From contig JAUSIT010000038.1 in assembly GCA_030647965.1 (NCBI GenBank), positions 1-58,576 on the forward strand: DNA of 58,576 nucleotides, written 5' to 3'. Below are positions 8,077 to 58,576 of the stretch, one piece after another. The first letter of the stretch is position 1. Each line of letters opens with the position of its first letter. The translations under genes were made by a program, and so were the position numbers. This stretch comes from Nanobdellota archaeon. Its GTDB lineage: Archaea; Nanobdellota; Nanobdellia; Pacearchaeales; GW2011-AR1. A model generated the notes under the pieces. That model did no database searches, was not told the DNA's origin, and saw only the letters and a program-made list of their open reading frames with translations.

Positions 8077-8236
8077 AAAAAATCCCCCTAAAAACTACTT
8101 TGGATTTTTTAAATGTCAAGAATTTACGAATTCTTGAGCACAATTCAAAACAAAATTCTCCTTGGAGAATTTTTCAAAGTTTTGGATGCCTCAAACTGGG
8201 AACGACAAATCTATAAGTTACATCCGGTTTGAGCAG
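8077..8236 (+). ncRNA. RNA-C copy 1: candidate structured RNA or repeat made of four consecutive hairpins
   Basis: Collinear with 26336-26510. It contains an HP-A hairpin at 8113-8141 and a terminal helix CAAACTGG/CCGGTTTG that covaries with copy 2. Confidence 0.4.
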
Positions 8237-8270
8237 GAAGATATTTAAACTAAAGATCATTTAGTTTAAT

Positions 8271-8504
8271 ATGGCCTTATTAAAAGAGGAATTAGCTAAT
8301 TTTAAACAGTATTATTTCAATTACTTTTCAGAATTTGTTGCAAAACCTTTGAAAAACGTAAGAGATAATTTTTTCAATGGTTTATATGAACCTTATATAA
8401 CAGAAGAAAGAGAAAAATTAGGTCTTGATCGTTTTTTTAGTAAGGGATTACATTTACCTAGATTAGAATTAGATAATAATTTTAGACCAATAAGGCTTCT
8501 TTAA
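8271..8504 (+). CDS. Hypothetical protein
   Basis: 77-aa ORF; no motif. Confidence 0.3.
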   Translation: MALLKEELANFKQYYFNYFSEFVAKPLKNVRDNFFNGLYEPYITEEREKLGLDRFFSKGLHLPRLELDNNFRPIRLL

Positions 8505-8516
8505 ATAAAAATAAAT

Positions 8517-8750
8517 TTAGGTCCTTAAAGGGATTTTATCTTTATTAAAATAAAGTATTAGTGCTAAAAGAGATTCTAAATTAGAGTCTTTTACTATTAT
8601 ATCTGCTTCTCTTGAGGAAATAGAACGATAAAGAATTGTTTTTACTCCTGGACCTTCAATATCTATTTGAGTTTTATAACTTTTAATAAAATAATTGTTA
8701 CCATTAATACTTATAGAATAGGGCTTTGAAGAATTTTCCTCTTTTTCCAT
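8517..8750 (-). CDS. Hypothetical protein
   Basis: 77-aa ORF with a TTTAAA-type box upstream; no motif. Confidence 0.3.
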   Translation of the reverse strand: MEKEENSSKPYSISINGNNYFIKSYKTQIDIEGPGVKTILYRSISSREADIIVKDSNLESLLALILYFNKDKIPLRT

Positions 8751-8832
8751 GTTTTTAATAGAATAACTAAGTATTTAAAAATTTGGTTGATTAAAAATAT
8801 TAATGAATAGAAGAATTTCAGAGGAGATTTAA

Positions 8833-9609
8833 ATGAAGTTTAGGCCTTGTATTGATTTGCATGAAGGAAAAGTTAAACAAATAGTGGGAAAAACACTAAA
8901 TAATAATGCAGAAAATTTAGTTGAAAATTTTATTTCTGATTATGATGCAGATTATTTTGCTGAAATATATAAAAAAGATAAATTAAATGATGGCCATGTT
9001 ATTATGCTTGGCTCAAGTAATGAAAAGCAGGCTTTGAAAGCACTACATTCTTATCCAAAAGGATTTCAAATTGGAGGAGGTATTAATCCGCAGAATGCAT
9101 TATATTTTATTAAAGAAGGAGCAAGCCATGTTATTGCAAGCTCTTATATTTTTGAAAATAATCAACTTTGCTTAAGAAAACTAGAAGAAATAGTTAATAG
9201 TGTTGGAAAATCTAATTTAGTTTTAGATTTAAGTTGTAAATTGAAAGATGAAAAGTATTTTGTGATGATAAATTCTTGGCAAAAACTCACTAATTTTGAA
9301 ATATCTTTAGAAAATCTTTCTTTATTATCTAAATATTGTGATGAATTTTTAATTCATGCAGTAGATGTTGAAGGACAATCCAAGGGCATTGAAATAAATC
9401 TGGTGAAAAAACTATCTGAATGGGTTAATCTACCTAATGTAAAAACTCCGGTAACTTATGCAGGAAGTATAAATTCTCTAGAAGATATTAAATTATTATA
9501 TAAATTAAGCAATGGGAAGCTAGATTTTAGTGTTGGAAGTAGTTTGGATATTTTTGGTGGAGATCTTCCTTATAAAAAATTAATTAATTTAAGAGATTTA
9601 ACTGTTTAA
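8833..9609 (+). CDS. hisA: ProFAR isomerase of the eukaryote/His6 type (HisA family)
   Basis: FRPCIDLHEGKVKQIVG, GGGIN, LVLDLSCK, NSWQKLT, EFLIHAVDVEG and VGSSLDIFGG are collinear with the yeast HIS6 sequence as I recall it. Confidence 0.75.
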   Translation: MKFRPCIDLHEGKVKQIVGKTLNNNAENLVENFISDYDADYFAEIYKKDKLNDGHVIMLGSSNEKQALKALHSYPKGFQIGGGINPQNALYFIKEGASHVIASSYIFENNQLCLRKLEEIVNSVGKSNLVLDLSCKLKDEKYFVMINSWQKLTNFEISLENLSLLSKYCDEFLIHAVDVEGQSKGIEINLVKKLSEWVNLPNVKTPVTYAGSINSLEDIKLLYKLSNGKLDFSVGSSLDIFGGDLPYKKLINLRDLTV

Positions 9610-9657
9610 ACAGCTGTTTAAAATAATTATAATAATTCTTATATAAAAAGTCAAGTA

Positions 9658-9846
9658 TTATTGCTTATCGAGAATAGCCTGTTTTTCTTGTTTAGTTTTC
9701 TCTTTAGCTTCAATTTCCTTTTCATAATATCTTACAAGATCTTCATTATTTTCTTCTTCTGCCTGTTTTTTCTTTTCTTCATGCAATTCGACTTGCTTTT
9801 GCAGTGAACTTATACCTTTTTTCAATCTCTTTTTTCTGTCCGTCAT
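9658..9846 (-). CDS. Small charged coiled-coil protein
   Basis: 62-aa K/E-rich ORF ending 3 nt after the upstream NTase gene; likely co-transcribed. Confidence 0.4.
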   Translation of the reverse strand: MTDRKKRLKKGISSLQKQVELHEEKKKQAEEENNEDLVRYYEKEIEAKEKTKQEKQAILDKQ

Positions 9847-9848
9847 TT

Positions 9849-10625: not shown

Positions 10626-10844
10626 GTATATACTAGGTATATACCACTATTTAAAGGTTTTTATTAAGATTTAAAGTGGCTTTATGCTCTTGAGAAAAAG
10701 AAATTTAATGGATAAAAAAAGAAAATACTAAATATTTTGACGAGATTTAGCTGTTTAAACAGCTGTTTAAGTGTTAAACATGGGCTGTTTAATAGGATAA
10801 TATATAACACTAATTCTTAAAAAGAGTTTTACCAATTAAATAAA

Positions 10845-11705: not shown

Positions 11706-11712
11706 TGATTGT

Positions 11713-12021
11713 TTAAACAATAAACCGCTCGGGATTCTCTTCTCTAACTTTTTTTAAACATTTAATAAAAGTAGTCATTGTTCCATTACATTCTTCTTTT
11801 AAATATTCTTCAAATTCTTCTTTATTATTTGGAGCAAAATGATGGCAATCTAAACATAAAGTAATTAAATTTTCAAGTTCATCTTTTCCTTGAAAAGTTA
11901 AAGGAATAATGTGGTGGGCTTCTAAAAATTTTTCAGATTTATCTTGAATTTTACATTTTTGACAGGTAAAATCATCTCTTTCAAATGCTTTTTTTCTTAA
12001 GACACTATTTCTTTTCTTCAT
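11713..12021 (-). CDS. HNH endonuclease
   Basis: CQKC...AHHIIP...NLITLCLDCHH is an HNH motif with zinc-binding cysteine pairs. Overlaps the 3' end of the recombinase gene by 17 nt. Confidence 0.75.
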   Translation of the reverse strand: MKKRNSVLRKKAFERDDFTCQKCKIQDKSEKFLEAHHIIPLTFQGKDELENLITLCLDCHHFAPNNKEEFEEYLKEECNGTMTTFIKCLKKVREENPERFIV

Positions 12022-12853
12022 TTTTCATTAAATTATCTAAGGGGGATGAAACTTTTTTCATTTCTTCTGATGAAATATGGGTATAAATTTGAGTTGTTGA
12101 AAGGTCTGCATGGCCTAATAATTCCTGAATCATTCTTATATCTGTTCCTGATTCTAATAAGTGAGTTGCAAAGGAATGTCTTAGTGTATGAGGATGAACA
12201 GATTTTTTTATTCCTGCTTTTTGCGCTACGTTTTGAATAATCTTTTGCATGTTTCTTGAAGATAATTTTCCATTTGGGCCTGTGAAAAGATATTCTTGAT
12301 TGTTTTGTTTTTGTAATTCTGCTTGTTCTTTTAAATTATCTGCCAAGAAATTAGGAATATTAAAATTCCTATCTTTTTTTCCTTTAGCCTGCCTTACATG
12401 ACCTATTTTTTCATCAAAATCCATATCCCTCATTTTTAAATTAATTAATTCTGAAACTCTAAAACCACATGCATAAATTAAAGAGAGCATTAACTTGCTT
12501 TTTTTATTTACGGCCGACTCAAGCAGTTTTCTGACTTCGTCTTTAGATAAAACAACAGGTATTTTTTTCTCTCGTTTTGGTCTTTTTATTCCTGCAGTTA
12601 TATCTTTGTTTAAGAGGTTAGAATAGGCATATTTTACAGCAGCAAGAAACAAGATAGAAGACATAGAAGATTTTTCTGCTAATTTTTCTGCCATGAAAAG
12701 CTTAATATCGTCTTGAGTTATCTCTTCAGGATTTTTCTTGGAAAAATCAATAAGTTTAGAGTTAGAAGAAAGATAGTTTCTAATAGTATGGGGGGAGTTT
12801 TTAGAGATTTTTAGTTCTGTTTCGATTTTTTTTAAGAAAACCTCTTTTTCCAT
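12005..12853 (-). CDS. Tyrosine recombinase, XerA/XerC/XerD-like
   Basis: GFRVSEL...HPHTLRHSFATHLLESGTDIRMIQELLGHADLSTTQIYTH carries the R-H-R-Y catalytic signature. 282 aa, Xer-sized. Confidence 0.85.
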   Translation of the reverse strand: MEKEVFLKKIETELKISKNSPHTIRNYLSSNSKLIDFSKKNPEEITQDDIKLFMAEKLAEKSSMSSILFLAAVKYAYSNLLNKDITAGIKRPKREKKIPVVLSKDEVRKLLESAVNKKSKLMLSLIYACGFRVSELINLKMRDMDFDEKIGHVRQAKGKKDRNFNIPNFLADNLKEQAELQKQNNQEYLFTGPNGKLSSRNMQKIIQNVAQKAGIKKSVHPHTLRHSFATHLLESGTDIRMIQELLGHADLSTTQIYTHISSEEMKKVSSPLDNLMKNEEKK

Positions 12854-14519: not shown

Positions 14520-14747
14520 TTAATGTCTATAAAATATACTATCTCTTCCTTCTCCACCATACACTTCATCTTCTGTATCTGTGCTCTTAGGTGAGCTTTG
14601 TGCAAGAGGTATATCTTCATAGTGATCTTTGATTAAAACTTCTTGAGGGGTTTTTTCTCCTGAATATCTTATTAACATTTTAATTTCTTCAGGATTGTCA
14701 TTTTTAAAATCAGAAAAACAATGTGCCACCCACACTTTGATTGGCAC
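14520..14747 (-). CDS. QSxPKST-family small protein, paralog 3; probably the 3' part of a gene interrupted by a repeat insertion
   Basis: AQSSPKSTDTEDEVYGGEGRDSIFYRH. The first 11 codons (MPIKVWVAHCF) are encoded by repeat sequence 14714-14747. Confidence 0.45.
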   Translation of the reverse strand: MPIKVWVAHCFSDFKNDNPEEIKMLIRYSGEKTPQEVLIKDHYEDIPLAQSSPKSTDTEDEVYGGEGRDSIFYRH

Positions 14748-14825
14748 TTGTTTTTGGGATGCTCCGAAATTAAAACCAGTAAATTACAACCCAATTCTAA
14801 AGAATTAAGTTTTAATTTCAGACAT
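14714..14825 (-). repeat. HP-A composite repeat: foot hairpin plus second hairpin with a T-run
   Basis: Minus strand reads ATGTCTGAAATTAAAAC...GGTTTTAATTTCGGAGCATCCCAAAAACAAGTGCC...GGCACATTGTTTTT. Homologous to 48989-49114 and 53292-53456. Confidence 0.7.
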
Positions 14826-16208: not shown

Positions 16209-16280
16209 ATTAACTCTTTTTAATAGACTTATTAAGATAGTGTAGTTTATAAATTTTTTGAGTTTTTCTCTGTTAAATCA

Positions 16281-16408
16281 AAAAAACAAAAGGGCACTAC
16301 CTCTTGAAAGGTATGGTTTGTAAAGCCCCTTTGTTTTTAGGATGATCAGAAATTAACGCAGTAAAGTTATATCTACATGATAAATAATGCAGTTTAATTT
16401 CTGACATC
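16281..16408 (-). repeat. HP-A composite repeat
   Basis: Reverse complement reads GATGTCAGAAATTAAACTGCAT...GCGTTAATTTCTGATCATCCTAAAAACAAAGGGGC...GCCCTTTTGTTTTTT. The foot hairpin is near-identical to 48989-49070. Confidence 0.65.
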
Positions 16409-17376: not shown

Positions 17377-17597
17377 AAAACCAGTGTTTTTATTGGTTTT
17401 TAGGTCAAAAAGTGTAAAAGTGAGAGTTAAATAAAACAAACAGGTTATAAAAAATGAGAAAAATAAAAATTTTCAACAAAAAAGTGAGTGAAAAAATAAG
17501 AAATTATCTCTTAGCAAAAAAGAGAGAGATCAAAATAAAGAGATTTTAGCAAATTTTCAGCAAGAAAGTGAGGAATCAAAAAATCCAAAGGATTTTA

Positions 17598-17636
17598 GGA
17601 TGCTCAGAAATGTAATAAGAGAACATTTCTGACATC
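17598..17636 (-). repeat. HP-A hairpin (short form)
   Basis: Reverse complement GATGTCAGAAATGTTCTCTTATTACATTTCTGAGCATCC shows the conserved foot with a bulged G. Confidence 0.6.
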
Positions 17637-22643: not shown

Positions 22644-22760
22644 ATTTACTAATTATTGCACTTCGTGGGAATATTAAGTCGACTAAAAAGTTTTGCTCTT
22701 ATCTTTTTCGTTTCTATTTTAAGAGTAAAACTTTTTGCGTCTCCTAAAGATTTATTAATT
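22644..22760 (+). repeat. EL-B copy 1 (H52 module at 22685-22736)
   Basis: ATTTACTAATTATTGCACTTCGTGGGAATATTAAGTCGAC-T-[AAAAAGTTTTGCTCTT..AAGAGTAAAACTTTTT]-GCGTCTCCT...TTATTAATTATT. Confidence 0.7.
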
Positions 22761-22812
22761 ATTATTCTCTTTACTTATTAGATCATATTAATATATTTAT
22801 ATGTTTAAAATT

Positions 22813-22839
22813 AACAGATAATTTATAAATTCTAAAAAA
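22813..22839 (+). promoter_or_regulatory. Duplicated promoter-like box AACAGATAATTTATAAATTCTAAAAAA, ending 12 nt before the ATG
   Basis: TTTATAAA TATA-like core. A near-identical box sits at 23238-23264 with the same spacing to its ATG. Confidence 0.5.
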
Positions 22840-22850
22840 TTCAACATATT

Positions 22851-23072
22851 ATGAATGAAAAAAAAGTAAGCAATCTTGTTAAAGCATTAGAAGATGTAGG
22901 TATAGAACTTGGCGAGCCTATTGAATGTCAAATAAACCCTGAACACACTAAAGCTGTTACAGAATTTTTAAGAAAAATAGAAGACGCACATAAAAGAACA
23001 AGAAATTCTACAATAAAATTTGATAATTATTCAAATAATTCTTCCTATTATTGCACTTCGTCATTATACTAA
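22851..23072 (+). CDS. Hypothetical small protein; C-terminus encoded by EL-B copy 2
   Basis: 73-aa ORF. The last roughly 10 codons (..SSYYCTSSLY) read through the EL-B backbone TTATTGCACTTCGTCATTATACTAA. Confidence 0.4.
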   Translation: MNEKKVSNLVKALEDVGIELGEPIECQINPEHTKAVTEFLRKIEDAHKRTRNSTIKFDNYSNNSSYYCTSSLY

Positions 23073-23228
23073 GTCGCCTATAGGCTCCTAACTATTTATT
23101 AATTAAAATCCATTGAAAAAGTTTTGCTCTTATCTTTTTCGTTTCTATTTTAAGAGTAAAACTTTTTATCGCTAGACTATTATAAGATTCTTGCTTGTTA
23201 AAGCAAACTAATTCAATGCAGTTGTAAG
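23045..23228 (+). repeat. EL-B copy 2 (H52 module at 23116-23167, downstream position)
   Basis: The backbone stem closes directly as AAGTCGCC-TAT-AGGCTCCT. H52 interrupts the ATTG/TCGCTAGAC hairpin. 3' part: TTGCTTGTTAAAGCAAACTAATTCAATGCAGTTGTA. Confidence 0.7.
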
Positions 23229-23237
23229 TTTAATATT

Positions 23238-23264
23238 AACAAATAATTTATAAATTCTAAAAAA
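23238..23264 (+). promoter_or_regulatory. Duplicated promoter-like box AACAAATAATTTATAAATTCTAAAAAA
   Basis: One mismatch to 22813-22839. Ends 12 nt before ATG 23276. Confidence 0.5.
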
Positions 23265-23275
23265 GTTAGTATTTT

Positions 23276-23584
23276 ATGGCTGATCCAAATCAATTAGATT
23301 TATTTAGAGCAAGTGAAGAACTAAAAAGAGAGCAAAAAGAAGGAAGAAATCTTGCTAAATATACTTCTATAAAATATAAACTTCCTGGAAGAACTATATC
23401 TCCTGCAAAAATGAGTAAAGAAGGTTTACAAAATTGGATTGTAGAGTTTGCTAAACTAAATAATATTGACTTACCCAAGGGATTTTATGGAAGAAATAGA
23501 ACCCAAATATTAGGAATGTATAAAGGAATGCAAGAAACTTATAATTTTAGTGATAGAGATATATTACCTAAAAAGAATTATTAA
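23276..23584 (+). CDS. Hypothetical small basic protein
   Basis: 102-aa ORF behind the duplicated promoter box; no motif recognised. Confidence 0.45.
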   Translation: MADPNQLDLFRASEELKREQKEGRNLAKYTSIKYKLPGRTISPAKMSKEGLQNWIVEFAKLNNIDLPKGFYGRNRTQILGMYKGMQETYNFSDRDILPKKNY

Positions 23585-25642: not shown

Positions 25643-25682
25643 TTTTAATTGAATAATTGAGGTTTTTTAAAGTTTGTTGTGA

Positions 25683-25778
25683 TTGAAATTAAAATCAGCA
25701 AAATTATATTCAATTTTAAATAATAGAATTTTAATTTCAGAGCATCCCAAAAACAAAGAGTAGTTTTCATTGTTTTTC
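25683..25778 (+). repeat. HP-A composite repeat
   Basis: TTGAAATTAAAAT...ATTTTAATTTCAGAGCATCCCAAAAACAAAGAGTAGTTTTCATTGTTTTT. Confidence 0.55.
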
Positions 25779-25850
25779 TGATGTTTGAAAAGAAAATAAT
25801 CTAATAGAATTACTTTTAATTAAAACAAAAATAATTTTAAAAAATTTTAT

Positions 25851-26111: not shown

Positions 26112-26223
26112 ATAAAATTTAAATGGAAACTGTTTATAAATGTTTCTGTAATAAATTCACTATATTAAAAAAACAATGTGTTATTCACATTTTTAAGTGT
26201 GAATTTAATAGATATTTGTTTTT

Positions 26224-26305
26224 AGGACCTCAATAATTATTAATTCTTGATGGCTTCAATAAGGTAAATTCTTGATAGTGCTCAAGATTTTATAATCTTA
26301 ATATA
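26224..26305 (-). repeat. Cluster of three degenerate HP-A hairpins
   Basis: GGACCTCAA..., GCTTCAA... and GTGCTCAAGATTTTATAATCTTAAT are reverse-orientation feet (GTGCTC/GGACCTC = reverse complement of GAGCAC/GAGGTCC). Confidence 0.45.
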
Positions 26306-26335
26306 CTCTGAAATTTAAACTAGTAAGCTCACAAT

Positions 26336-26510
26336 AAAAAATCCCAATCACAGCAAGTTGTGGGGTATTTTTTAAATGTCAAAAATTTACGAATTTTTGA
26401 GCACACTCCAAAACAAAATTCTTCAAGGAGAATTTTTCAAAGTTTTGGATGCCTCCAAATGGGAACGACGAAAATTGTAGCAAGCTAAGAAGTATAAGAC
26501 CCATTTGCAG
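26336..26510 (+). ncRNA. RNA-C copy 2
   Basis: Collinear with 8077-8236. The HP-A hairpin at 26376-26404 carries a compensatory G:C to A:T change. The terminal helix is CAAATGGG/CCCATTTG. Confidence 0.4.
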
Positions 26511-26665
26511 TAATCAAATTTTAGAGTAAACATAATTTCGGACATTAAAAAAAGATATTAATTTTTAAAAAATGTTCTTTTTAATTTATTTTTAAAGGTT
26601 ATTTTTCAAATTATTGATTTTTTTAGGTAAAATAGGTTAATATTTAATTAATTATCTTTAATTCT

Positions 26666-26735
26666 TGTCAAGAACCCTCGGAATAAATTCCGGGGCGTGT
26701 CTCGGGTTCTTGAGCACCCTAAAAATTGTTTTTTC
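26666..26735 (+). repeat. HP-A hairpin with a GC-rich arm
   Basis: TGTCAAGAACCC-TCGGAATAAATTCCGGGGCGTGTCTC-GGGTTCTTGAGCACCCTAAAAATTGTTTTTT. Confidence 0.55.
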
Positions 26736-26874: not shown

Positions 26875-27220
26875 TAACCCCTCACCCTATGGTTTCTTAT
26901 GGAAAAGATTTATAAAGGAATTTCAAAATTGAAAATGTTGAATTTTTATTTATAAATATATATATTATATATTATATATATTAATATATAATATAATATA
27001 ATAATATATAATTAAGTATCTATATTTTAATTTTTTAAATTTTTGTTAATTTTTTACGTCAGTATATTTAGTAAATTACTAATAATACTACTTTAATACA
27101 CTTATTTTTTAAAATAATATTCTAGATATGAAATAAGGGGGTGAGGGGTTGCTAAATATTTTTATTAGTTAAAATAAGTAAAAAAGAGCTATTTTAAGTT
27201 CCATATGAAATAAAGGTTAG
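26875..27220. other. Candidate replication origin (oriC): inverted ORB-like boxes flanking an AT-rich unwinding region
   Basis: 26875-26907 TAACCCCTCACCCTATGGTTTCTTATGG is an inverted match to 27125-27152 GATATGAAATAAGGGGGTGAGGGGTTGC. A mini-box CCATATGAAATAAAGG sits at 27201-27216. (TA)n-rich tract at 26941-27120. Directly upstream of orc1/cdc6. Confidence 0.6.
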
Positions 27221-37995: not shown

Positions 37996-38002
37996 TTTTT
38001 TC

Positions 38003-38182: not shown

Positions 38183-38459
38183 TTATATAATATTAAATTA
38201 AGTTTCCCTTTATAAACTTACCTACTAAGTAATACCTTTAATAGATATGTTTATAAAGATATATTTACTAAACTATATATCTTATAAGTATAGTTTACTT
38301 GAGAGATTTATAAGTTTTTCTCAATACTTATATAGATGAAGATATTGATGATAAAATGAAAAAAACCTTGGGAATAAGGTTTTTAGTATGCAAGAAAATT
38401 CAAGGAATTTTCTGCCCCTGAAAATCTATCGATTTTCAGTGGTTCAAAATTAAAAATTT

Positions 38460-39232: not shown

Positions 39233-39283
39233 ATGTCAGAAATGCTGTTAAAGTTGTGGCATTTCTGAGCATCCTAAAAACAA
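39233..39283 (+). repeat. HP-A hairpin between convergent genes
   Basis: ATGTCAGAAATGCTGTTAAAGTTGTGGCATTTCTGAGCATCCTAAAAACAA. Confidence 0.65.
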
Positions 39284-39290
39284 AAAGTAT

Positions 39291-40178
39291 TTATTTTTTA
39301 TAATGTGCCTTTTTGTTTTTCTGATTAATACAAGCTTGTTTTAAGAAATTTAAAGTTAAATCTACTAATTTTTCTCTTTCATTTTCAAAAAAGTCAAAAG
39401 CAGGTTCTGAATTAACTTCTAAAACAAGCCATTTTCCATCTTTTTTTAATAAATCAATGCCGCAAATGTTTATTTTTACTGCTTTGACAACTTTATCTAC
39501 TATTTTTTTTAAATCACTATCTATTTTAAATTTTTTAAATGTTTTTCCATGAACTCCTGTTGCTTTCCAGGTTTTACTTGTTTTAATTGCTGTTTGGACA
39601 ATTTTTTTATTTATTATAGTAATTCTATAAGATGGTGAAAGAACCATTTCTTGAGCAATTATTGGAATTTTTTCAGAGCCTTTTTTCCAGAATTTTTTTA
39701 TGACTCTGACTGCTTGCTCTGGATTTTCTGCTTTTTCAACATATTCTCCCATTGTTCCTACAACTCTTTTTAAAACAACAGGCCAGTGATTAAAATCTTC
39801 TAATTCTTTTTTAGCAATGTTTAGGTTTTCAGATAGTAAAATAGTATTTATTGTAGGGATATTATGCTCTTGACATTTAACATAAAACATCCATTTATCT
39901 TCTGTATAATAGTATAATCTTGAATTATCAATTACTTTTTTTCCAAATTCTTCAATTGTTTTTATATACTCTATAACAAAATCCTCTGCAGTGTTATTAT
40001 ATATTAAATCGCATTTTTTTATTTGTTCTCTAAATTCTTTTTCATCTATTCTTTTAAAAATATTAATTGGAATTAGTTCGATGTTTTTCTTTTTTGCAAG
40101 TTCAAGAAACATTTTTTCTTCTTTTCCAAGATTTTTTCCACTATAAAGAAAACCTATCACACTCTTTTTGCTAGTCAT
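39291..40178 (-). CDS. ATP-grasp ligase, RimK-like
   Basis: Size and pattern (WPVVLKRVVGTMGEYV..., IIAQEMV, VLEVNSEPAF) fit the RimK/ATP-grasp fold. Confidence 0.65.
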   Translation of the reverse strand: MTSKKSVIGFLYSGKNLGKEEKMFLELAKKKNIELIPINIFKRIDEKEFREQIKKCDLIYNNTAEDFVIEYIKTIEEFGKKVIDNSRLYYYTEDKWMFYVKCQEHNIPTINTILLSENLNIAKKELEDFNHWPVVLKRVVGTMGEYVEKAENPEQAVRVIKKFWKKGSEKIPIIAQEMVLSPSYRITIINKKIVQTAIKTSKTWKATGVHGKTFKKFKIDSDLKKIVDKVVKAVKINICGIDLLKKDGKWLVLEVNSEPAFDFFENEREKLVDLTLNFLKQACINQKNKKAHYKK

Positions 40179-40246: not shown

Positions 40247-40429
40247 ATTTACTATTATTATACTTCGTAGGAATATTAAGTTGCCTAGAAAAAGTTTTAC
40301 TCCCCTATCTTGCGTACTCATTGCAAGAGCAAAAGTTTTTGCGGCTCCTTTCGATTAATTAATATAAATTGTCGCTAGACAATTATAATATTCTTACTTG
40401 TTAAAGCAAACTATTTCAACGCAGTTGTA
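40247..40429 (+). repeat. EL-B copy 4 (H52 at 40289-40340)
   Basis: GATTTACTATTATTATACTTCGTAGGAATATTAAGTTGCC-TAG-[H52]-GCGGCTCCT...ATTGTCGCTAGACAAT...CTTGTTAAAGCAAACTATTTCAACGCAGTTGTA. Confidence 0.7.
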
Positions 40430-40445
40430 TGTCTCTATAGATTTT

Positions 40446-41718: not shown

Positions 41719-44025
41719 ATGAAACATATTAAAAATTATTTTATATTTTTTACAGTGTTAGTGTTTTCTTTATTATTTGTTATTGCAGAAGATGTTTCTA
41801 CAACAACTACTGATTTAGGAAATAGTGTAACTTCTTCAGTTGATAATTCTCAGGTAGTTCAATCAGATGAAACTAATTTAGCAACTTCAACAACACAATC
41901 AGAAACAGATAGTGCAACTTCAACAACAGAGTTTAATGTTGATGCTGGATTAACTCCTGATAGTCCGTTTTATTTTATTGATAATCTTGCTGAACAAGTT
42001 ACAGTTGGTAATAATCCTGAGAAAGCATTAGATGCTCAAGAAGAGAAAATTGCAGAAGCACAGATTATGGTTGAAGAAGGTCGAACTGAAGAAGCTAAAC
42101 AAGTTTTAGACAAAGCATTACAATATGGAGATATTGTTGAAAAAGAAGCTTCTCCTGAAATGAAACAAAGAATTCAAGAAAGTTCTCAACAAGTTCAAGA
42201 TGTTTTAATTGAAATGAAAAAAGATACAACTGATGAAAAATGGAAAGATGTTAATGATGGATTTGATGAAAATATTGCAAAAGAAAAAACAATGCAAAAA
42301 GCTTCTGAAATTGCATCAAAAATAAAAGAGCTTTGTAATACTCTTGCTACACTTGACCCTATACAATATGCTGATTCATGCGGTTCAAAAACAAATTCTC
42401 CTAAATGGATGAAAGAACAAGATAAGATCTTGACTAAAGAACAAGAACAACAAGCAACAATTTTCTTTGATAAATTATCTCAGTGTTTTGAAACTCCTGA
42501 CAAATGTGATTGTAATGGGATGGGTGTTCAGAGTTTTCAAGATTTTTGCATTGAAAAAAGTTCTTTAGCAGTAAAATGTAAACAAGGTGACAAAGATTCT
42601 TGTACTAATTTTAAGTCAGGGTCAGATCCTACAGAATTACTTCCTGATTATTTAATTCCTATATTTAAAAAAGTTGAATCTAAATATATGAAGGCCGAAT
42701 TTGATACGTATATGCCAGAAGAGTGTTTAAAAGCAGGAGCAAAAACTGCTGAAGAATGTAATAAAGTTATGTTTCAACTTAATGCACCTAAAGAATGTTT
42801 AGAAGCAGGTTATACTGGGAAATCAAAAGAAGATAAAATTAATTGTAATCAATTAATGTTTAAACAAAATGCTCCTAAAGAATGTCTTGATGCTGGAATA
42901 ACTTCTGAAGATCCAGATGCTCCTAGAAAATGTGCAAAATTAATGTTTACAACAAATGCTCCTCAAAAATGCCTTGATGCTGGTTTGACAGGAGAAAATA
43001 GTAAAGATGATAAAAAATGCAGAGAATTAATGCAGGGACAAGAACAGCAAGGGCAACAAGGACAACAATCTTTAATGCCTAAATTTAATAGAGATTGCAA
43101 AGCTATATCTGATACAACTGAAAAAATGAAATGTTATGAAGAATTTTATAATAACGCTCAGGTTCAGGTAAAAGATGAATTTAGGCAAGTAATAGACCAG
43201 AATACTGGGGAGACAATATCTCCTGAAGAAGAAAAATCAAGACAAGAGTGCAAATCCAAAGGAATGGGAACTATTTTAGAATATAAATATGGGAAAAGAA
43301 TAATAATTTGTGTTAATGGAAATGAAGCTGGTTCAAATGGGCAAAGATGTCAATCACAACAAGAAACAGAAAACTTAAAACAAGATTGTAAATCAAGAGG
43401 GCAAGATGCAAAAGTTGAAATTCGTGGTGGATGCCCTTGGGTAATTTGTGTTAGTGGACAGCAAATGCAACAAGCTCAACAAATGCAACAAGCCCAACAA
43501 AATTCACAAGAGCAATTTAATCCTTATGGAAGTTATAATCCTTATATAAAAGAAGATAGATATGGACAAAAATGTCCTGATGGAATTTGCGATGCTGCTG
43601 AAAAAGCAGATGCTTATTTATGCCCTATTGATTGCGGTGGGGCAGGAATGCAACAGCCTCAACAAAATCAACAGCCTCAACAAAATATTCAACAACCTTC
43701 ACAAACACAAAATTGTCAGGAACCTCATCCTGATTGTCCTGGAGCATTTCCTTATTGCCAGAATGGAAATTGGATATGCCCCTCTTCACAGACTCAACAA
43801 AATCAACAACCAATACAACAACCTCAAATTGTAACACCTCCACAAACAGATACAACAACTCAACCAGCAACAAATTCTCCTGCAACAACAGAGCAAACTC
43901 AACAACAACCAGCAACTCAAGAGCCTGCACCCACAACTAGTTCAACAACATCTGGGGGAAGTGGTGGAGGAGAAGTAGCACCTATTACTGGTGCAGTTAT
44001 TTTTTGGAATTATTATTATAATTAA
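41719..44025 (+). CDS. Large secreted Cys-rich / Gln-rich surface protein with tandem repeats
   Basis: Signal peptide; DUF5667-like LTPDSPFYFIDNLAEQV; four roughly 31-aa repeats NAP(K/Q)(E/K)CL(E/D)AG..C..LMF; a poly-Q/T/P stalk; short C-terminal hydrophobic tail. Confidence 0.6.
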   Translation: MKHIKNYFIFFTVLVFSLLFVIAEDVSTTTTDLGNSVTSSVDNSQVVQSDETNLATSTTQSETDSATSTTEFNVDAGLTPDSPFYFIDNLAEQVTVGNNPEKALDAQEEKIAEAQIMVEEGRTEEAKQVLDKALQYGDIVEKEASPEMKQRIQESSQQVQDVLIEMKKDTTDEKWKDVNDGFDENIAKEKTMQKASEIASKIKELCNTLATLDPIQYADSCGSKTNSPKWMKEQDKILTKEQEQQATIFFDKLSQCFETPDKCDCNGMGVQSFQDFCIEKSSLAVKCKQGDKDSCTNFKSGSDPTELLPDYLIPIFKKVESKYMKAEFDTYMPEECLKAGAKTAEECNKVMFQLNAPKECLEAGYTGKSKEDKINCNQLMFKQNAPKECLDAGITSEDPDAPRKCAKLMFTTNAPQKCLDAGLTGENSKDDKKCRELMQGQEQQGQQGQQSLMPKFNRDCKAISDTTEKMKCYEEFYNNAQVQVKDEFRQVIDQNTGETISPEEEKSRQECKSKGMGTILEYKYGKRIIICVNGNEAGSNGQRCQSQQETENLKQDCKSRGQDAKVEIRGGCPWVICVSGQQMQQAQQMQQAQQNSQEQFNPYGSYNPYIKEDRYGQKCPDGICDAAEKADAYLCPIDCGGAGMQQPQQNQQPQQNIQQPSQTQNCQEPHPDCPGAFPYCQNGNWICPSSQTQQNQQPIQQPQIVTPPQTDTTTQPATNSPATTEQTQQQPATQEPAPTTSSTTSGGSGGGEVAPITGAVIFWNYYYN

Positions 44026-46707: not shown

Positions 46708-46840
46708 TATTTACTATCTTCTCTAAGAAGATATAATGCACTTCAAAAAGTTTTGCTCTTCTATCCCTCGTTACTTATTGTAAGAGCAAAACTTTTTCGT
46801 GGGAATACTAAGTCGCCTGTCGGCTCCTAACTTTTATTAT
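46708..46840 (+). repeat. EL-B copy 5 (H52 at 46745-46797, upstream position)
   Basis: ..ATAATGCACTTC-[H52]-CGTGGGAATACTAAGTCGCC-TGT-CGGCTCCTAAC. H52 lies between GCACTTC and GTGGGAATA, and the backbone stem closes directly. Confidence 0.7.
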
Positions 46841-48296: not shown

Positions 48297-48965
48297 ATGA
48301 AACTAGGAGTTTTATTTTCAGGTGGAAAAGATAGTATGTATGCTGCTTATTTGGAAAAGAAAAAAGGCAATGAATTAACTTGCTTAATTTCAATATATTC
48401 TGAAAATAAAGAGAGTTTTATGTTTCATACTCCTTCTATTGAAAAAGTTGAAAAACAAGCAGAGGTTATGGAGATTCCTTTAGTTATTTGGAAAACAAAA
48501 GGAGAAAAAGAAAAAGAGCTTAAAGATTTAGAAGAAGCTATAAAACATGCTAAAGAGAAGTATAAAATAGAAGGGATTGTAACTGGGGCTTTACGAAGTG
48601 TGTATCAAACAGAAAGAATTCAGAAAATCTGTGATAAATTAAAATTAAAATGTATTAATCCTTTATGGCAGAAAGATGAGTTTGAATATTTAGATGAGCT
48701 TTTGAAAAATAAGTTTAAGGTAGTTATTGTTGGAGTTTTTGCTTATCCTCTAAATGAAAAATGGCTTGGAAGAGAGATTGATAAAAAGTTTATTGGAGAT
48801 GTTAGAAAGCTATATGAAAAATATAAAATTCATCCAGCCGGGGAGGGGGGAGAATTCGAGTCATTTGTTTTAGATTGTCCTTTATTTAAAAGGGCTTTGA
48901 AAATAACTGATAAAAAAATATCTGGGGCTGGAAATAGCTGGAAAATTGAGATAGAGGTTGAATAA
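48297..48965 (+). CDS. PP-loop ATPase of the MJ0570 / diphthine-ammonia ligase (Dph6-like) family
   Basis: PP-loop LFSGGKDS and the EGGEFES motif. Confidence 0.75.
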   Translation: MKLGVLFSGGKDSMYAAYLEKKKGNELTCLISIYSENKESFMFHTPSIEKVEKQAEVMEIPLVIWKTKGEKEKELKDLEEAIKHAKEKYKIEGIVTGALRSVYQTERIQKICDKLKLKCINPLWQKDEFEYLDELLKNKFKVVIVGVFAYPLNEKWLGREIDKKFIGDVRKLYEKYKIHPAGEGGEFESFVLDCPLFKRALKITDKKISGAGNSWKIEIEVE

Positions 48966-48988
48966 TCTCTTAATAATTATGTTTTTTA

Positions 48989-49114
48989 ATGTCAGAAATT
49001 AAACTGCATCATTTATGATGTAGACGTAACCTTAGTGCGTTAATTTCTGAGCATCCTAAAAACAAGTGCCAATCAAACCCACACTTTTAAGTGTGGGTGG
49101 CACATTGTTTTTTT
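48989..49114 (+). repeat. HP-A composite repeat (long foot hairpin, second hairpin, T7 run)
   Basis: ATGTCAGAAATTAAACTGCATC...GCGTTAATTTCTGAGCATCCTAAAAACAAGTGCCAATCAAACCCACACTTTTAAGTGTGGGTGGCACATTGTTTTTTT. Confidence 0.7.
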
Positions 49115-49372
49115 GATACAATTAGCTTTTATATTGCTGATTTCATTTGCAGTAGCTTTGGCAAAATTCTTTAAGTCTTTTACATCTTCAGCAGTACTAT
49201 CAAGTTTATGCATTGCCCACCCCGCTAAATATACTACACCAAAAAGAGGGGCATATTCTAATAATAATGGTGTATTAATAACTCCTAGGGTTTTTAATAT
49301 AATCCAGATTAAAATTCCTCCTAAAACAACCCATGCCAATATATCCCAGGCATTTATTCCTCTTTTATTCAT
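49073..49372 (-). CDS. Small membrane protein; C-terminus encoded by repeat sequence
   Basis: Two TM helices. The last roughly 14 codons (KKTMCHPHLKVWV) lie in the second hairpin of the repeat at 49073-49114. Confidence 0.45.
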   Translation of the reverse strand: MNKRGINAWDILAWVVLGGILIWIILKTLGVINTPLLLEYAPLFGVVYLAGWAMHKLDSTAEDVKDLKNFAKATANEISNIKANCIKKTMCHPHLKVWV

Positions 49373-49441: not shown

Positions 49442-49636
49442 ATTTTTACTGATTATTGCACTTCGTTAAAATACTAAGTCGACTTGAAAAAGTTTTACTC
49501 TTCTATCTTGCGTACTCATTGCAAGAGCAAAACTTTTTGCGTCTCCTAATTAGTTATTAATTAATTACTTCTTGATTGTCGCTAGACAATCTTAATATCC
49601 TTTGCTTATTAAAACAAACTATTTCAACATAGTTTT
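49442..49636 (+). repeat. EL-B copy 6 (H52 at 49487-49538)
   Basis: ATTTTTACTGATTATTGCACTTCGTTAAAATACTAAGTCGAC-TTG-[H52]-GCGTCTCCT..TTATTAATTAATT..ATTGTCGCTAGACAAT..TTGCTTATTAAAACAAACTATTTCAACATAGTT. Confidence 0.7.
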
Positions 49637-49709
49637 ATATTGAATTTGATAGTTTACTTAACATTTTTGATGGCTAAATCTTTTTAAATTGCTTTTATCA
49701 TCATATTCT

Positions 49710-52951: not shown

Positions 52952-53383
52952 TTGGAATATAATATTTTAATGAATGAAGACATTAAAGAAATTGATGAAA
53001 AGGGGTTTGATTATTTAGTAGATGATATTTTTAAAGGTCTTGGCTTAGTAAAAAAGCATGAGCGTTTTGTTGATGGAATAAATATAATTTTAAAAAATGG
53101 AAATCCTGAATTAGGGAGATATGTAATGGATAAATTAAATTTAAGAATGAAAAGTGAAATGCTTTTTGATTCGTTTGATATCTCTCTTTCTGACAAGATT
53201 TTAAAAGAACAGGACAAAACAAATTTTTATACAATTGATTTAGATTATTTTTTTATGAAATATTTAAGTGACGAGCCTATTAAAAATTATTATGTCCGAA
53301 ATTTGGTTAAAACCGCACCCTTTAGGGTGCTGAATTTCGGAGCATGTCAAGATTTTACAATCTTGAGCACCATCAAGAATTAA
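52952..53383 (+). CDS. Hypothetical protein (TTG start in the track; C-terminus runs into repeats)
   Basis: The last roughly 30 codons (..YVRNLVKTAPFRVLNFGACQDFTILSTIKN) are encoded by the HP-A triple hairpin from 53292 onward. Confidence 0.3.
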   Translation: MEYNILMNEDIKEIDEKGFDYLVDDIFKGLGLVKKHERFVDGINIILKNGNPELGRYVMDKLNLRMKSEMLFDSFDISLSDKILKEQDKTNFYTIDLDYFFMKYLSDEPIKNYYVRNLVKTAPFRVLNFGACQDFTILSTIKN

Positions 53384-53456
53384 TAATTCTTGAGGTCCGA
53401 AAAACAAGTGCCAATCAAACCCACACTTTTAAGGGTGGGTGGCACATTGTTTTTTT
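53292..53456 (+). repeat. HP-A composite: three consecutive foot hairpins, second hairpin, T7 run
   Basis: ATGTCCGAAATT..AATTTCGGAGCAT, then GTCAAGATTTTACAATCTTGAGCAC, then ATCAAGAATTAATAATTCTTGAGGTCC, then GAAAAACAAGTGCCAATCAAACCCACACTTTTAAGGGTGGGTGGCACATTGTTTTTTT. Confidence 0.7.
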
Positions 53457-53534
53457 GATAATAGACATTAAATTGATTATATACTTTTAAGTACATATAG
53501 GTTTATAAAATAAAAGAGTTTATTTTGATAGAAG

Positions 53535-56522: not shown

Positions 56523-56554
56523 GAAAATATAACTAATCTAAGTTAGTATTTCTG

Positions 56555-56665
56555 TAAAACCTTACTATTTTGGCAGTAAAAAAATGACCTTTCTCCTTAG
56601 GCATATTCATAAACCTTACTATTTTGGCAGTAAAAACGTTGAGTTTATGCACTATTTTGGCAGTA
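56555..56665 (+). promoter_or_regulatory. Three direct ACTATTTTGGCAGTA boxes (dyad TACT-N8-AGTA)
   Basis: TAAAACCTTACTATTTTGGCAGTAAAAA at 56555-56583, repeated at 56610-56636, with a shorter CACTATTTTGGCAGTA at 56650-56665. Confidence 0.45.
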
Positions 56666-56735
56666 TATATTTAGAGTACAATTGAAAATATTTGTCTACA
56701 AAATAGGATATGTCTACATTTTTGTCTACAAATGA

Positions 56736-57692
56736 CTATTTTATCTTTTTTTTGGTTTCTTTATATTCTTTTAGAATAAATTCAATTGTTGGACGGAGAT
56801 TATTATTTTTTTCGTATTCTTGTAGTGTTTTATAATATTCAAATCTATGATTTAATTTAATATTAACTGGGGGGAGACCTTTCTTTAGAAGAATATTATT
56901 CAATAGTATTCTTCCAACTCGACCATTACCATCTGCAAATGGGTGAATATTCTCAAACTGATTATGAACAACTGCTGCAAGAATTAGTGCAGGATATTTA
57001 TCTTTATGATTTTCATACCACTTTATCAATTCATTTAATAAAGAGATGACTCTAGATTGAGGTGCACCTTCGTGAACTATTCCTTCTTGACCCATTACTA
57101 CTACTTCTTCTCCAAACTTTCTAAATTCTCCTGCAAAATTTTTAGAATTTTTAAAAACAATTTTATGAATCTCTTTGATTAAATTTAGAGAAATATGTTC
57201 TTTTGTCTGTCGTATATAACTTATTGCTTCACTTACTCCATAAGTTTCAGCAACATCTTCTTTGCTTTTATCTTTAGGCCAGTTTCCCCTTTCCAAAATT
57301 TCTTTTACTTCAATATTTGTTAATCTACTTCCTTCAATTGCATTAGTGTTATATGTAAACAATTCTGAAAAAATAGCCCATTTATCTTCTGAAAGATGAA
57401 TTATTTTGAGATTTGCTTCTTTTTCAAGATGCATTACAAATTTGATTTCTTCTGTTGATAATTCTGTTTCAATAGGATCTTTTAGTACTTTATATTTCTC
57501 AATTTCTTCTAAAATCAATTTTTCAGCTTTATTTTTTCTTTCTTCTAGCACTTCTTTTGTTAAATCTGTTCCAAGTAGTTTTCTTATTTTGTGCACTTTT
57601 CCATCTTCTCTAAAAGAATGAGCTAGATAATATTTTATCTTTCCACGAACATTTCTTTTCTCAAGATACATAACATTATAGTGGGTGACCAC
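56736..57692 (-). CDS. Fic family protein (long form)
   Basis: Fic motif HPFADGNGRVGR. The track start is GTG 57692; ATG at 57671 (MYLEKRN) is an alternative. Confidence 0.8.
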   Translation of the reverse strand: MVTHYNVMYLEKRNVRGKIKYYLAHSFREDGKVHKIRKLLGTDLTKEVLEERKNKAEKLILEEIEKYKVLKDPIETELSTEEIKFVMHLEKEANLKIIHLSEDKWAIFSELFTYNTNAIEGSRLTNIEVKEILERGNWPKDKSKEDVAETYGVSEAISYIRQTKEHISLNLIKEIHKIVFKNSKNFAGEFRKFGEEVVVMGQEGIVHEGAPQSRVISLLNELIKWYENHKDKYPALILAAVVHNQFENIHPFADGNGRVGRILLNNILLKKGLPPVNIKLNHRFEYYKTLQEYEKNNNLRPTIEFILKEYKETKKKIK

Positions 57693-57739
57693 ATATTTAA
57701 ACTTTTCTACATTTTTGTCTACAATCTACCCTTAAATCT

Positions 57740-57782
57740 AAATTCCCTTTTTAAATGTGGGTGGCACATTGTTTTTTTGATA
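57740..57782 (+). repeat. Partial HP-A composite (3' half of the second hairpin plus T7 run)
   Basis: ..TTTTTAAATGTGGGTGGCACATTGTTTTTTTGATA. The 26-nt stretch 57757-57782 is identical to 49093-49118 and 53435-53460. Confidence 0.6.
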
Positions 57783-57976
57783 AAAAGATATGATCTTAAG
57801 TTAACTTGCGGGGCAACTAGTTTTTAGCTAGCTTTTAATTGTTTTTGCTACTGGTTTTGACAGGCATTTTTTGATTTTTTTAAGAAAAAAACATAAGCTT
57901 TATATATCATATTTTTCTAATAATTATGTAGATGTTTTATAGTTAACCCGCACTAAAATTATTTACTAAAAAAGAG

Positions 57977-58576
57977 ATGGTTCATAAGAAATATATTAAA
58001 AGAGGCAATAAGGTTTTTGGTCCGTATTTTTATGAAAATTACAGGGAAAACGGAATTACTAAAACAAGATATTTAGGCACTGCTCTAGAAAATTCTGCTG
58101 ATTCTAAACAAAAAAAATTTAGTTTTAATTTTTTTAAAAAAATCAAAAAAATCATGAATCCTCATTCTTCAAAAAGTTCGTTTGATTTTTTGGATGCTCC
58201 GAAATTAAAACCCTCTCCTAAAGGGGGCAGGATAATTTCGGACATCAGAAAAATAAAGTTGCCGCAATTTCCAGAGTTGCGGGGTAATTTTAGTTTTTTG
58301 TTATTGGCTGTTGTTGTTATGTTAGGACTTTTTTCATACTCCTTTTTTAGTGGTGGGTTAACTGGAAGAGCTATATTTGATTTCTCTTCTAGTTCAAATT
58401 TAAATTTAGAAACTCCTGCAAGTTATAATCTTGGAGATTTAGTTTATGGAAATGTTTCTTTAAAACTGAAAAATGGTGAGTTAATTCCTGCTGATAGTGT
58501 TGTTAGGTTTTCTTTAAACAAGCAACAAAAAGATGTTTTGATTTCTGATTTGATTTCTGCACAAAGTGCAAATGGT
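57977..58576 (+). CDS. Hypothetical membrane/surface protein, 3' end outside the window (not in the ORF track)
   Basis: ATG 57977, open for 200 codons to the window edge: MVHKKYIKRGNKVFGPYFYENYRENGITKTRYLG..., then a TM segment FSFLLLAVVVMLGLFSY. It contains an in-frame HP-A hairpin. Confidence 0.5.
   Translation, partial: MVHKKYIKRGNKVFGPYFYENYRENGITKTRYLGTALENSADSKQKKFSFNFFKKIKKIMNPHSSKSSFDFLDAPKLKPSPKGGRIISDIRKIKLPQFPELRGNFSFLLLAVVVMLGLFSYSFFSGGLTGRAIFDFSSSSNLNLETPASYNLGDLVYGNVSLKLKNGELIPADSVVRFSLNKQQKDVLISDLISAQSANG
58191..58245 (-). repeat. HP-A hairpin lying in frame inside a coding region
   Basis: GGATGCTCCGAAATTAAAACC..GGATAATTTCGGACATC is the reverse orientation of ATGTCCGAAATT...AATTTCGGAGCATCC. 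It is translated as ..LDAPKLKPSPKGGRIISDI... Confidence 0.6.

Follow-up and report, generated by a model that had tools for sequence, protein, structure and literature searches.

A hairpin repeat of a DPANN archaeon is very probably one domain of a doubly folded, IS200/IS605-type miniature element

The stretch of DNA analysed here (hereafter referred to as the window) comprises the 58,576 nucleotides of contig JAUSIT010000038.1 from a Nanobdellota archaeon of the Pacearchaeales (assembly GCA_030647965.1), and the subject of this report is a hairpin, HP-A, copies of which are dispersed along it. The window has a G+C content of about 27% and encodes Orc1/Cdc6 (27300–28517), ribosomal proteins, RNA polymerase subunit D, XerA, both subunits of DNA polymerase D (PolD), of which the large one carries an intein, and ordinary metabolic genes. 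This gene content identifies the window as a segment of an archaeal chromosome; its proteins are 50–65% identical to those encoded on contigs of Pacearchaeota and Woesearchaeota metagenome-assembled genomes (MAGs). Upstream of cdc6 (27300) lies an inverted repeat that resembles an origin recognition box (ORB), with its arms at 26876–26910 (AACCCCTCACCC) and 27116–27150 (GGGTGAGGGGTT) and a pure A+T tract between them (26946–27010); the same region contains short direct repeats (ATATGAAATAAGGG) at 27126 and 27203. We regard 26876–27216 as the probable replication origin and place oriC at about 27.0 kb.

The original prediction, made from the letters of the window, described HP-A as at least 14 dispersed hairpins that share a conserved foot (ATGTC on the 5′ side, GAGCA(T/C)C on the 3′ side) with one bulged G and have freely covarying arms. 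A strict descriptor, which demanded TGTC, at least six paired arm bases and GAGCA within 200 nt, retrieved 10 hairpins from the window, starting at 8114, 26377, 26666, 39234, 48990, 53293 and 53345 on the forward strand and at 14760, 17601 and 58195 on the reverse strand. Allowing one mismatch in the foot added the hairpin at 16343(−), whose 3′ foot is GATCA, and about six degenerate hairpins exist besides the 10 strict ones. The chance expectation, obtained from 200 first-order Markov simulations of the window, was a mean of 0.11 and a maximum of 1. A covariance model constructed from related copies recovered every locus named in the original prediction and two more, 3461–3575(−) and 38353–38425(−). 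Three of the loci named proved to be partial: 25683–25778 lacks the 5′ foot, and 26224–26305(−) and 37720–37800 are 5′-truncated multi-hairpin forms. The dispersed hairpins are therefore real. The pairing of the foot around one bulged G, the complementarity of arms that differ in sequence and the compensatory G:C to A:T change between the copies at 8114 and 26377 were also described correctly.

In an exact-pattern scan of 185,579 genomes, one for each species, more than 115 loci matched; all those among the matches listed came from DPANN MAGs, in about 30 assemblies, and their hosts were Pacearchaeota, Woesearchaeota, Nanoarchaeota and Nanoarchaeia. The copies formed 43 clusters of 67–223 nt, and the covariance model gave 184 matches in 100 loci and about 15 in the window. 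Viral contigs contained no match to the same pattern. The foot did not dissolve as copies were added: in 121 distinct copies from about 30 genomes, its three pairs were G:C in 116, T:A in 108 and C:G in 110. In the MAG JAUYDD01, dozens of copies are near-identical and many contigs end inside them, which indicates recent spread in that genome. Comparison of orthologous regions showed that the neighbourhoods of oriC (locus L048) and of dph (locus L058) carry elements at different positions.

HP-A had been taken for a free-standing unit, which it is not: in every case ATCC-(Y)AAAA, a second hairpin and TTTTT(Y)TGAT come after it. HP-A is the 5′ domain of a composite element of about 60–220 nt that extends from GTC to TGAT, and its stem is an outer helix in which the left-end linker (GTC-N-GAAAT...) pairs with an internal segment. 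Long forms contain two inner subterminal hairpins with 7–9-bp stems and TTTA loops, each with a 4-nt guide on its 5′ side; the left hairpin (hereafter IP_L) lies in the loop of HP-A and the right one (IP_R) in the loop of the second domain.

The best-preserved long form, located at 48991–49117(+), spans 127 nt from GTC to TGAT and is the top match of the covariance model in the window (103.9 bits). It lies directly 3′ of a diphthamide-synthase-like gene (48297–48965) and shows 84–92% identity to copies in other DPANN MAGs, whose flanks differ; between genomes, the element alone can be aligned at the DNA level. Its 5′ neighbour on the same strand is the flanking tetranucleotide TAAT (48987–48990), which the targeting rule of IS608 (see below) predicts from the left guide as the left cleavage and target site, and the last two bases of which are the AT of the ATGTC foot. 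The 5′ arm of HP-A is the left-end linker, GTCAGAAATTAA (48991–49002); it overlaps three of the four bases of the left guide, TAAA (49000–49003), and pairs with the 3′ arm, TTAATTTCTGAGC (49040–49052), leaving the G at 49051 bulged. Within the loop, the guide is followed by IP_L, CTGCATCA-TTTA-TGATGTAG (49004–49023). An internal splint, GAGCATCC (49049–49056), pairs through its GA(G)C with the 5′ GTC and through its ATC with the 3′ GAT, or through its AT with the AT of the flank; both alternatives appear in folds calculated with RNA parameters and with DNA parameters. In the second domain, the right guide CAAA (49074–49077), which predicts TGAT, precedes IP_R, CCCACAC-TTTTAA-GTGTGGG (49078–49097), and the element ends with the right cleavage site, TGAT (49114–49117).

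The foot can thus be re-read. On its 5′ side, AT is the end of the target, GTC represents the first three bases of the element, and the arm corresponds to the left linker and shares part of its length with the guide; on its 3′ side, GA(G)C belongs to the internal segment, and the ATC(C) that follows pairs with the terminal (T)GAT. The internal octamer is complementary to the joined ends TGAT|GTC, and in the modelled fold the strand would bring both termini of the element side by side on the GA(G)C-ATC(C) splint.

Both outer helices emerged from an analysis with MAFFT and RNAalifold. In a model-based alignment of the 121 distinct copies, the outer stems were 98.1% paired, and 18 of the 19 pairs had undergone change on both sides; this alignment had been fitted to the covariance model, which favours structure, but the independent MAFFT alignment shows the same compensations. 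None of 500 shuffles reached the observed pairing or compensation, and slid controls were paired to 61% at most. The ATC/GAT pairs showed 6 and 3 compensatory changes. Folded as single-stranded DNA, 48991–49117 had a z-score of −8.97 and contained both domains and both inner hairpins.

What is inserted is defined by two occupied sites, each with an empty counterpart. In the first, the element GTC...TGAT stands between ...GGTAAT and TTTGCAAAATTCTCT at locus L112, and locus L023 (2519–2608) reads ...GGTAAT|TTTGCAAAATTCTCT; in the second, it stands between ...TTAAT and TTCAGTT at locus L106, and locus L038 (5757–5849) reads ...TTAAT|TTCAGTT. The inserted unit is exactly GTC...TGAT, placed 3′ of TAAT without duplication. 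TAAT is the tetranucleotide predicted by the guide of that subfamily, and both targets lie within a host hairpin loop. Since TAAT exists at the empty sites before insertion, the AT of the predicted ATGTC foot is target DNA, and only its GTC starts the element. Among copies in general, position −2 is T in 88 of 91, while position −1 differs between subfamilies and also varies within near-identical ones. Tandem copies share the junction TGAT|GTC. Searches for a target-site duplication, terminal inverted repeats or complementary flanks gave nothing beyond the shuffled control, save for a few insertions in the loops of host hairpins.

K07491, a Y1 transposase, is the only transposase entry of the KEGG orthology with strict matches in 256 Nanobdellota proteomes (preprint 10.64898/2026.05.13.725050). 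All-against-all clustering of 908 open reading frames (ORFs) from about 700 kb of element-bearing loci revealed no recurrent transposase ORF beside the copies. A motif search identified a 151-residue Y1 TnpA (PF01797) at 3202–3657 of locus L062, 1.4 kb from an element. This protein has 942 homologues at E ≤1e-10, with PF01797 present in all among the matches listed, and most of them are encoded on contigs of about 1 kb. The search for Y1 genes beyond the window, which had been proposed as a check, thus shows that tnpA is present in related genomes and also shares contigs with the elements, at L062, L142 and L163.

A perfect hairpin with a TTTA loop stands on either side of the tnpA gene, CTACTGCC-TTTA-GGCAGTAG-CGTAAC upstream and GGAAA-CCTACACC-TTTA-GGTGTAGG-AGGATGTCAT at its stop codon. 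When copies of this insertion sequence (IS) with different flanks are compared, its left end falls at ATAA| and its right end at TCAT|. Both hairpins recur in the long HP-A elements: the one in the HP-A loop is followed by (A/T)CGTAAC or ATGA, and the one in the loop of the second domain often includes a nested TCGCC..GGCGA mini-hairpin, as do the right ends of the ISs. Common to the hairpins of the ISs and the inner hairpins of the elements are a C-initial stem of 7–9 bp, a TTTA loop and AT(G) 3′ of IP_L. In the copy at 48991–49117, IP_L is homologous in form to the left-end hairpin of the L062 IS (a C-initial 8-bp stem and a TTTA loop, then A/T-CGTAAC), and IP_R has a form like that of the right-end hairpin, CCTACACC-TTTA-GGTGTAGG. 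In some autonomous IS copies, the guide and IP_L are likewise enclosed by an outer stem (CCGCAA...TTGCGG), so that the design is not confined to miniature elements.

In IS608, each cleavage tetranucleotide is recognised by the four bases that precede a hairpin foot on its 5′ side: T-4 pairs with A-34, C-3 with G-35 and A-1 with T-32, whereas A-2 stays unpaired (PMC3201880). The same rule holds, with covariation, in 86 tnpA loci: the guide GAAA goes with the end TCAT in 32 of 32 cases, and further pairs of guide and end are GAAG/TCAC, ATAT/ATAA, AAAT/TTAA, AAAC/TTAG and CAAC/TGAG. The inner hairpins of the HP-A elements follow it as well. Their right guide CAAA was accompanied by TGAT in all 36 parsed copies; on the left, AAAA was accompanied by TTAT in 25 of 28 and TAAA by TAAT in 21 of 31 (Fisher test for the association of left guide and target, p = 3.7e-8 by copy).

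These results, taken together, make it very probable that HP-A is the left domain of a non-autonomous element of the IS200/IS605 family, similar to a PATE and abundant in DPANN archaea of the Pacearchaeales and Woesearchaeales type. PATEs are palindrome-associated transposable elements of haloarchaea and cyanobacteria and belong, in kind, with the MITEs, miniature mobile elements that have no transposase gene. Four of six features of the IS200/IS605 family were found, namely a Y1 enzyme in the lineage, subterminal hairpins (in the long forms), the guide code and duplication-free insertion 3′ of a tetranucleotide. The IS200/IS605 resemblance pointed out in the original prediction was hence right in kind, although HP-A itself is not the subterminal hairpin bound by the transposase. 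Among mobile elements, this one is of a known kind, albeit unusual in being doubly folded, and does not represent a new class of system; what is new is that, in an IS200/IS605-derived miniature element of DPANN archaea, the subterminal hairpins are nested in two covarying outer helices.

Most likely, the element would move as single-stranded DNA by 'peel and paste'. Its transposase, the Y1 HUH enzyme TnpA (PF01797), would come in trans from tnpA-only, IS200-like ISs of the same lineages; we infer mobilisation by this TnpA family from the shared hairpins and code. TnpA is proposed to bind IP_L and IP_R, and each guide to pair with its cleavage tetranucleotide such that the first base of the latter meets the second of the guide, the second meets the first and the fourth meets the fourth, with the third, an A, left unpaired. 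The left cut in the strand would then follow the flanking TNAT and the right cut the terminal TGAT, and the excised element would reinsert 3′ of a TNAT without duplication. The two outer helices, HP-A and that of domain 2, may stabilise a compact, dumbbell-like single-stranded intermediate; alternatively, they may gate access to the guide, as the HP-A stem covers two or three guide bases. Setting the 5′ GTC beside the 3′ TGAT is the role that we infer for them. Short copies without inner hairpins are probably immobile products of decay.

Several observations weigh against this assignment. No tnpA was found by tblastn in the window, in agreement with the original prediction, which had recognised no Y1 gene there, and tblastn located tnpA in only one locus among the approximately 700 kb of element-bearing loci. 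An autonomous IS that combines CAAA/TGAT with the left end GTC-N-GAAAT, as expected of the parent element, was not found among the 86 tnpA loci. TGAT is one of eight endings that the element parser accepted, and the association of left guide with target becomes only marginal when counted by subfamily (p = 0.057). The right cleavage site lies about 20 nt from the foot of IP_R, compared with 10 nt in IS608 and in the autonomous archaeal ISs, and the guide could reach the cleavage site only if the HP-A stem melted. The short forms, which lack the IP hairpins and depart from the code, have nevertheless kept the foot and both stems, which simple decay does not fully explain. The orientation expected of lagging-strand insertion around oriC was seen in 10 of the 16 window copies, which is not significant.

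It is also conceivable, though we consider it rather unlikely, that the outer helices are a functional innovation and not a by-product, and, relatedly, that the short forms have been co-opted by the host or by an enzyme resembling the REP-associated tyrosine transposases (RAYTs) of bacterial repetitive extragenic palindromes (REPs). If this were true, the excised strand would be a nicked dumbbell with abutting 3′ TGAT and 5′ GTC, that is, a self-splinted, nuclease-resistant circle junction, and, as long as the element is integrated, the guide would be concealed by the same helix, giving a built-in conformational switch for single-strand transposition. Co-opted short forms would make this the first REP-like system in Archaea.

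The elements resemble the MITEs and PATEs of the IS200/IS605 type in the absence of a transposase gene, terminal inverted repeats and target-site duplications, in having subterminal hairpins at both ends, in inserting 3′ of a short specific sequence, and in their high intergenic copy number and the presence of cognate ISs in the same lineages. They differ in their DPANN hosts, in the nesting of the subterminal hairpins within larger covarying helices, which pair each terminal linker with a shared internal segment so that the ends abut, and in the intercalation of extra hairpin modules; in addition, the exact parent IS was not found. With IS608 of Helicobacter pylori (PMC3201880), they share the 4-nt guide 5′ of the hairpin foot, the pairing rule, insertion 3′ of the left tetranucleotide and AT 3′ of IP_L, and the autonomous archaeal ISs have, like IS608, a 10-nt right linker starting with AG. 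In contrast to IS608, the archaeal hairpins have no extrahelical T but a perfect stem with a TTTA loop, and the bulged base resides instead in the outer HP-A helix; both linkers of the element are base-paired, the right one being about 20 nt long and the left one overlapping the guide, and tnpB is lacking. Our literature search found no description of this element family. To our knowledge, hairpins nested in covarying outer helices that join the ends have not been described for the IS200/IS605 family.

Among the other explanations, the one that survives best is a domesticated system of the REP/RAYT type, which we nonetheless consider improbable. Under this explanation, HP-A, with its bulged G and conserved 5′ bases, would be recognised by a single-copy, REP-associated Y1 enzyme, and the elements would be kept for host functions such as the formation of mRNA 3′ ends, supercoiling or an origin-proximal structure. 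Like REPs and the mosaic elements built from them (BIMEs), the elements are short and abundant extragenic hairpins with a conserved foot, mosaic arrays and a link to a Y1 enzyme; their density is very high, with about 16 copies in 58.6 kb, the multi-hairpin forms are BIME-like, and the short forms retain the foot and both stems in the absence of inner hairpins. Furthermore, the sole transposase orthology entry found in Nanobdellota, K07491, is annotated as a REP-associated tyrosine transposase, and variants tagged with TGTC occur among the bacterial CGTC REPs (PMC3733652). However, it is the inner hairpins and not HP-A that obey the guide/cleavage code. The tnpA genes reside in bona fide mobile ISs with left and right ends of their own, many on contigs of about 1 kb and with differing flanks, whereas REPs are arranged in inverted pairs around a single-copy RAYT; HP-A modules run head to tail, and no bracketing by inverted HP-A was seen. 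REPs bear an unpaired GTAG/CGTC tag at the end of the hairpin (PMC3733652), while TGTC is base-paired here with GA(G)CA. The defining features of REP/RAYT systems, the bracketed single-copy RAYT and the unpaired tag, are thus absent. The REP/BIME resemblance raised in the original prediction could still fit the short copies, but this reading is not needed.

We consider it very unlikely that the elements are functional RNA modules, either stabiliser or terminator hairpins of 3′ untranslated regions or small RNAs, with their spread being secondary. Every element ends in a run of five to eight T residues, an archaeal termination signal, the secondary structure is strong, and several window copies (39235, 48991, 8115 and 17575) lie directly 3′ of a co-oriented gene. 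Over 120 copies, however, the orientation was unbiased, the upstream neighbour being co-oriented in 41 and opposite in 58. Mispairs of the G:T and A:C types were equally rare (5 versus 5), whereas an RNA would have favoured G:U. The equal rarity of the two mispairs and the lack of a relation between orientation and neighbouring genes point to an element that acts at the level of DNA rather than to a strand-specific RNA. In addition, GAT is conserved beyond the T-run, and the insertion polymorphism and the transposase code account for the conserved bases. Rfam, at both gathering and permissive thresholds, gave no match at any element of the window but only two tRNAs; the one sub-threshold match, Plastid-ycf2 (E = 0.64), lies on the antisense strand of a tRNA-Ser gene. 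We also checked by eye for a hammerhead core (CUGAUGA/GAAA), loop A of the hairpin ribozyme (N|GUC opposite AGAA), C/D boxes and K-turns, and rejected them; the respective positions are fully paired or not conserved.

There is hardly any likelihood that the hairpins are folded recombination sites, similar to attC or dif, of a tyrosine recombinase (IntI or XerA). As in integron attC sites, the structure is conserved while the sequence varies, the foot is conserved, a base is extrahelical and the distal or terminal structure is variable; moreover, a tyrosine recombinase is encoded in the window at 12005–12853(−). This recombinase, the only one of its type in the window, scores 243.7 bits with the XerA model (NF040815), above its cut-off of 220, and 218.6 bits with the integron-integrase model, below the 265 required there. 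The R″/R′ core (RYYYAAC/GTTRRRY) and L boxes, a cassette array and IntI are all missing, the elements are scattered in either orientation among housekeeping genes, and what is inserted is the hairpin element as such; the attC resemblance suggested in the original prediction does not hold. Just as little can be said for a classical MITE of a DDE transposon with terminal inverted repeats and a target-site duplication, the outcome that the original prediction had named as contrary to its own: a census based on terminal inverted repeats reported a very high MITE density in a Woesearchaeal genome (PMC11602168), and the hairpin arms could be scored as such repeats, but the termini GTC... and ...TGAT are not inverted repeats of each other, neither the flanks nor the empty sites show a duplication, and no DDE transposase recurs near the copies.

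The IS200/IS605-type element, which we prefer, is represented in the window by further copies in various states of preservation. A long form at 53294–53459(+), with the left guide AAAA and the left target TTAT, contains two extra short hairpin modules between HP-A and domain 2; the 'three in tandem' originally proposed for 53292–53456 are this single element. The long form at 14709–14823(−) has the same guide and target, which fit the code, but the 5′ arm of its IP_R is deleted. A decaying long form at 16277–16405(−) has the 3′ foot GATCA, a degenerate IP_R and the left target TGAT, and the element at 58142–58243(−), with a degenerate IP_L, was inserted after TGAT. HP-A with a nested inner hairpin and the atypical left flank TCTT is found at 26667 to about 26739(+). 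The copy at 25681–25782(+) has no 5′ foot but an intact domain 2; that at 26164–26310(−) is a 5′-truncated multi-hairpin copy ending in TAAT; a degenerate copy at 3464–3567(−) was absent from the original prediction, as was a variant at 38356–38418(−), which has the alternative foot (G)GCAG...CTTGCAT, ends in TCAT and represents a module type also present in other MAGs. A right-end fragment at 57753–57781(+) retains half of IP_R, the linker and TGAT.

Four short forms of the window (8115–8187, 17575–17633, 26378–26450 and 39235–39325) have no inner hairpins and fall outside the code, while foot and stems are kept. The one at 39235–39325(+) lies directly 3′ of a CN-hydrolase gene and extends at its 3′ end into the last codons of a convergent RimK-like ORF; that at 17575–17633(−) is only 59 nt long. 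The short form at 8115–8187(+), which ends in GGAT, shares its repeat (91% identity) with its paralogue at 26378–26450(+), in which the arm has undergone the compensatory change. In these two paralogues, a third hairpin follows (8188–8240 and 26451–26515), with the foot TGCCTC...GAGCA, a bulge on its 5′ side and covarying arms (CTCAAACTGG/CCGGTTTGAG versus CCAAATGGG/CCCATTTG), and the repeat unit there extends past the GGAT end. Four HP-A elements are clustered within the 1.2 kb to the left of the candidate oriC.

Additional hairpin modules with conserved bulged feet of their own, such as GCAC-AAGAAAATT...AATTTTCT-GTGC and TGCAG-AAAA...TTTTC-(A/T)-TGCAT, occur in L008, L019, L038, L059, L079 and other loci, and at 38356–38418 of the window, where they either follow HP-A, ahead of the terminal domain, or take the place of HP-A. 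As a whole, the family is a mosaic of hairpin modules. Set against L013, the copy at L069 (about 7350–7510) keeps its outer stem, but the inside of its domain 2 runs in the opposite direction to that of other members of its subfamily, an arrangement that suggests flipping through recombination between the stem arms. As to the autonomous ISs, the loops of many right-end hairpins hold one or two nested mini-hairpins, such as GCCGAAGGC or TTTGACGC..GCGTCAAA (L126, L127, L129, L131, L139, L181, L185, L194 and others); the transposase-binding hairpin evidently tolerates or attracts insertions into its loop. At 1000–1340 of L163, a tnpA IS adjoins tRNA-like genes on the opposite strand, and its left end directly follows the TTGAT end of a multi-hairpin element of the HP-A type (TTGATTAA|TCTTTCC).

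A second family of dispersed repeats, of about 190 nt, occupies 22645–22894, 23040–23319, 37814–37999, 40247–40432, 46745–46800 and 49445–49638; its core is a hairpin, AAAAAGTTTTGCTCTT...AAGAGCAAAACTTTTT, followed by GCG(T/G)CTCC. The copy of this repeat at 37.7 kb is split by an HP-A element, a multi-hairpin copy with a decayed 5′ arm at 37729–37831(+).

To the right of the candidate oriC, the gene order is cdc6, PolD DP1, an HD protein and DP2. The latter, the large PolD subunit (31106–36064), contains a LAGLIDADG-domain intein at about residues 940–1384. A 768-residue protein encoded at 41719–44025 has a DUF5667 domain, three tandem repeats of 87 nt (42757–42983) and a repetitive tail rich in glutamine and proline; the repeats and tail raise the local G+C content to 34%. 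The XerA-type recombinase gene adjoins an ORF for a 102-residue HNH-domain protein (11713–12021, −), whose match to the IscB model is confined to the HNH part. A related HNH-like stretch (4930–5000) lies within an ORF (4532–5059) that has a partial 'Recombinase' domain of serine recombinases and is followed by a zinc-ribbon ORF (4198–4530).

The HP-A elements cover about 2.7% of the window, with roughly one copy per 4 kb, a strikingly high density for organisms whose genomes are known to be reduced and poor in transposases. They are probably the main repeat family of DPANN genomes of the Pacearchaeales and Woesearchaeales type, and they explain the fragmentation of MAGs at repeats of about 130–160 nt in these lineages. 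Together with the autonomous ISs, they provide a natural set of covarying guides and cleavage sites over hundreds of IS and MITE copies, including GAAA/TCAT, CAAA/TGAT, TAAA/TAAT and AAAA/TTAT, which extends the programmable-target rule of IS608 to Archaea.

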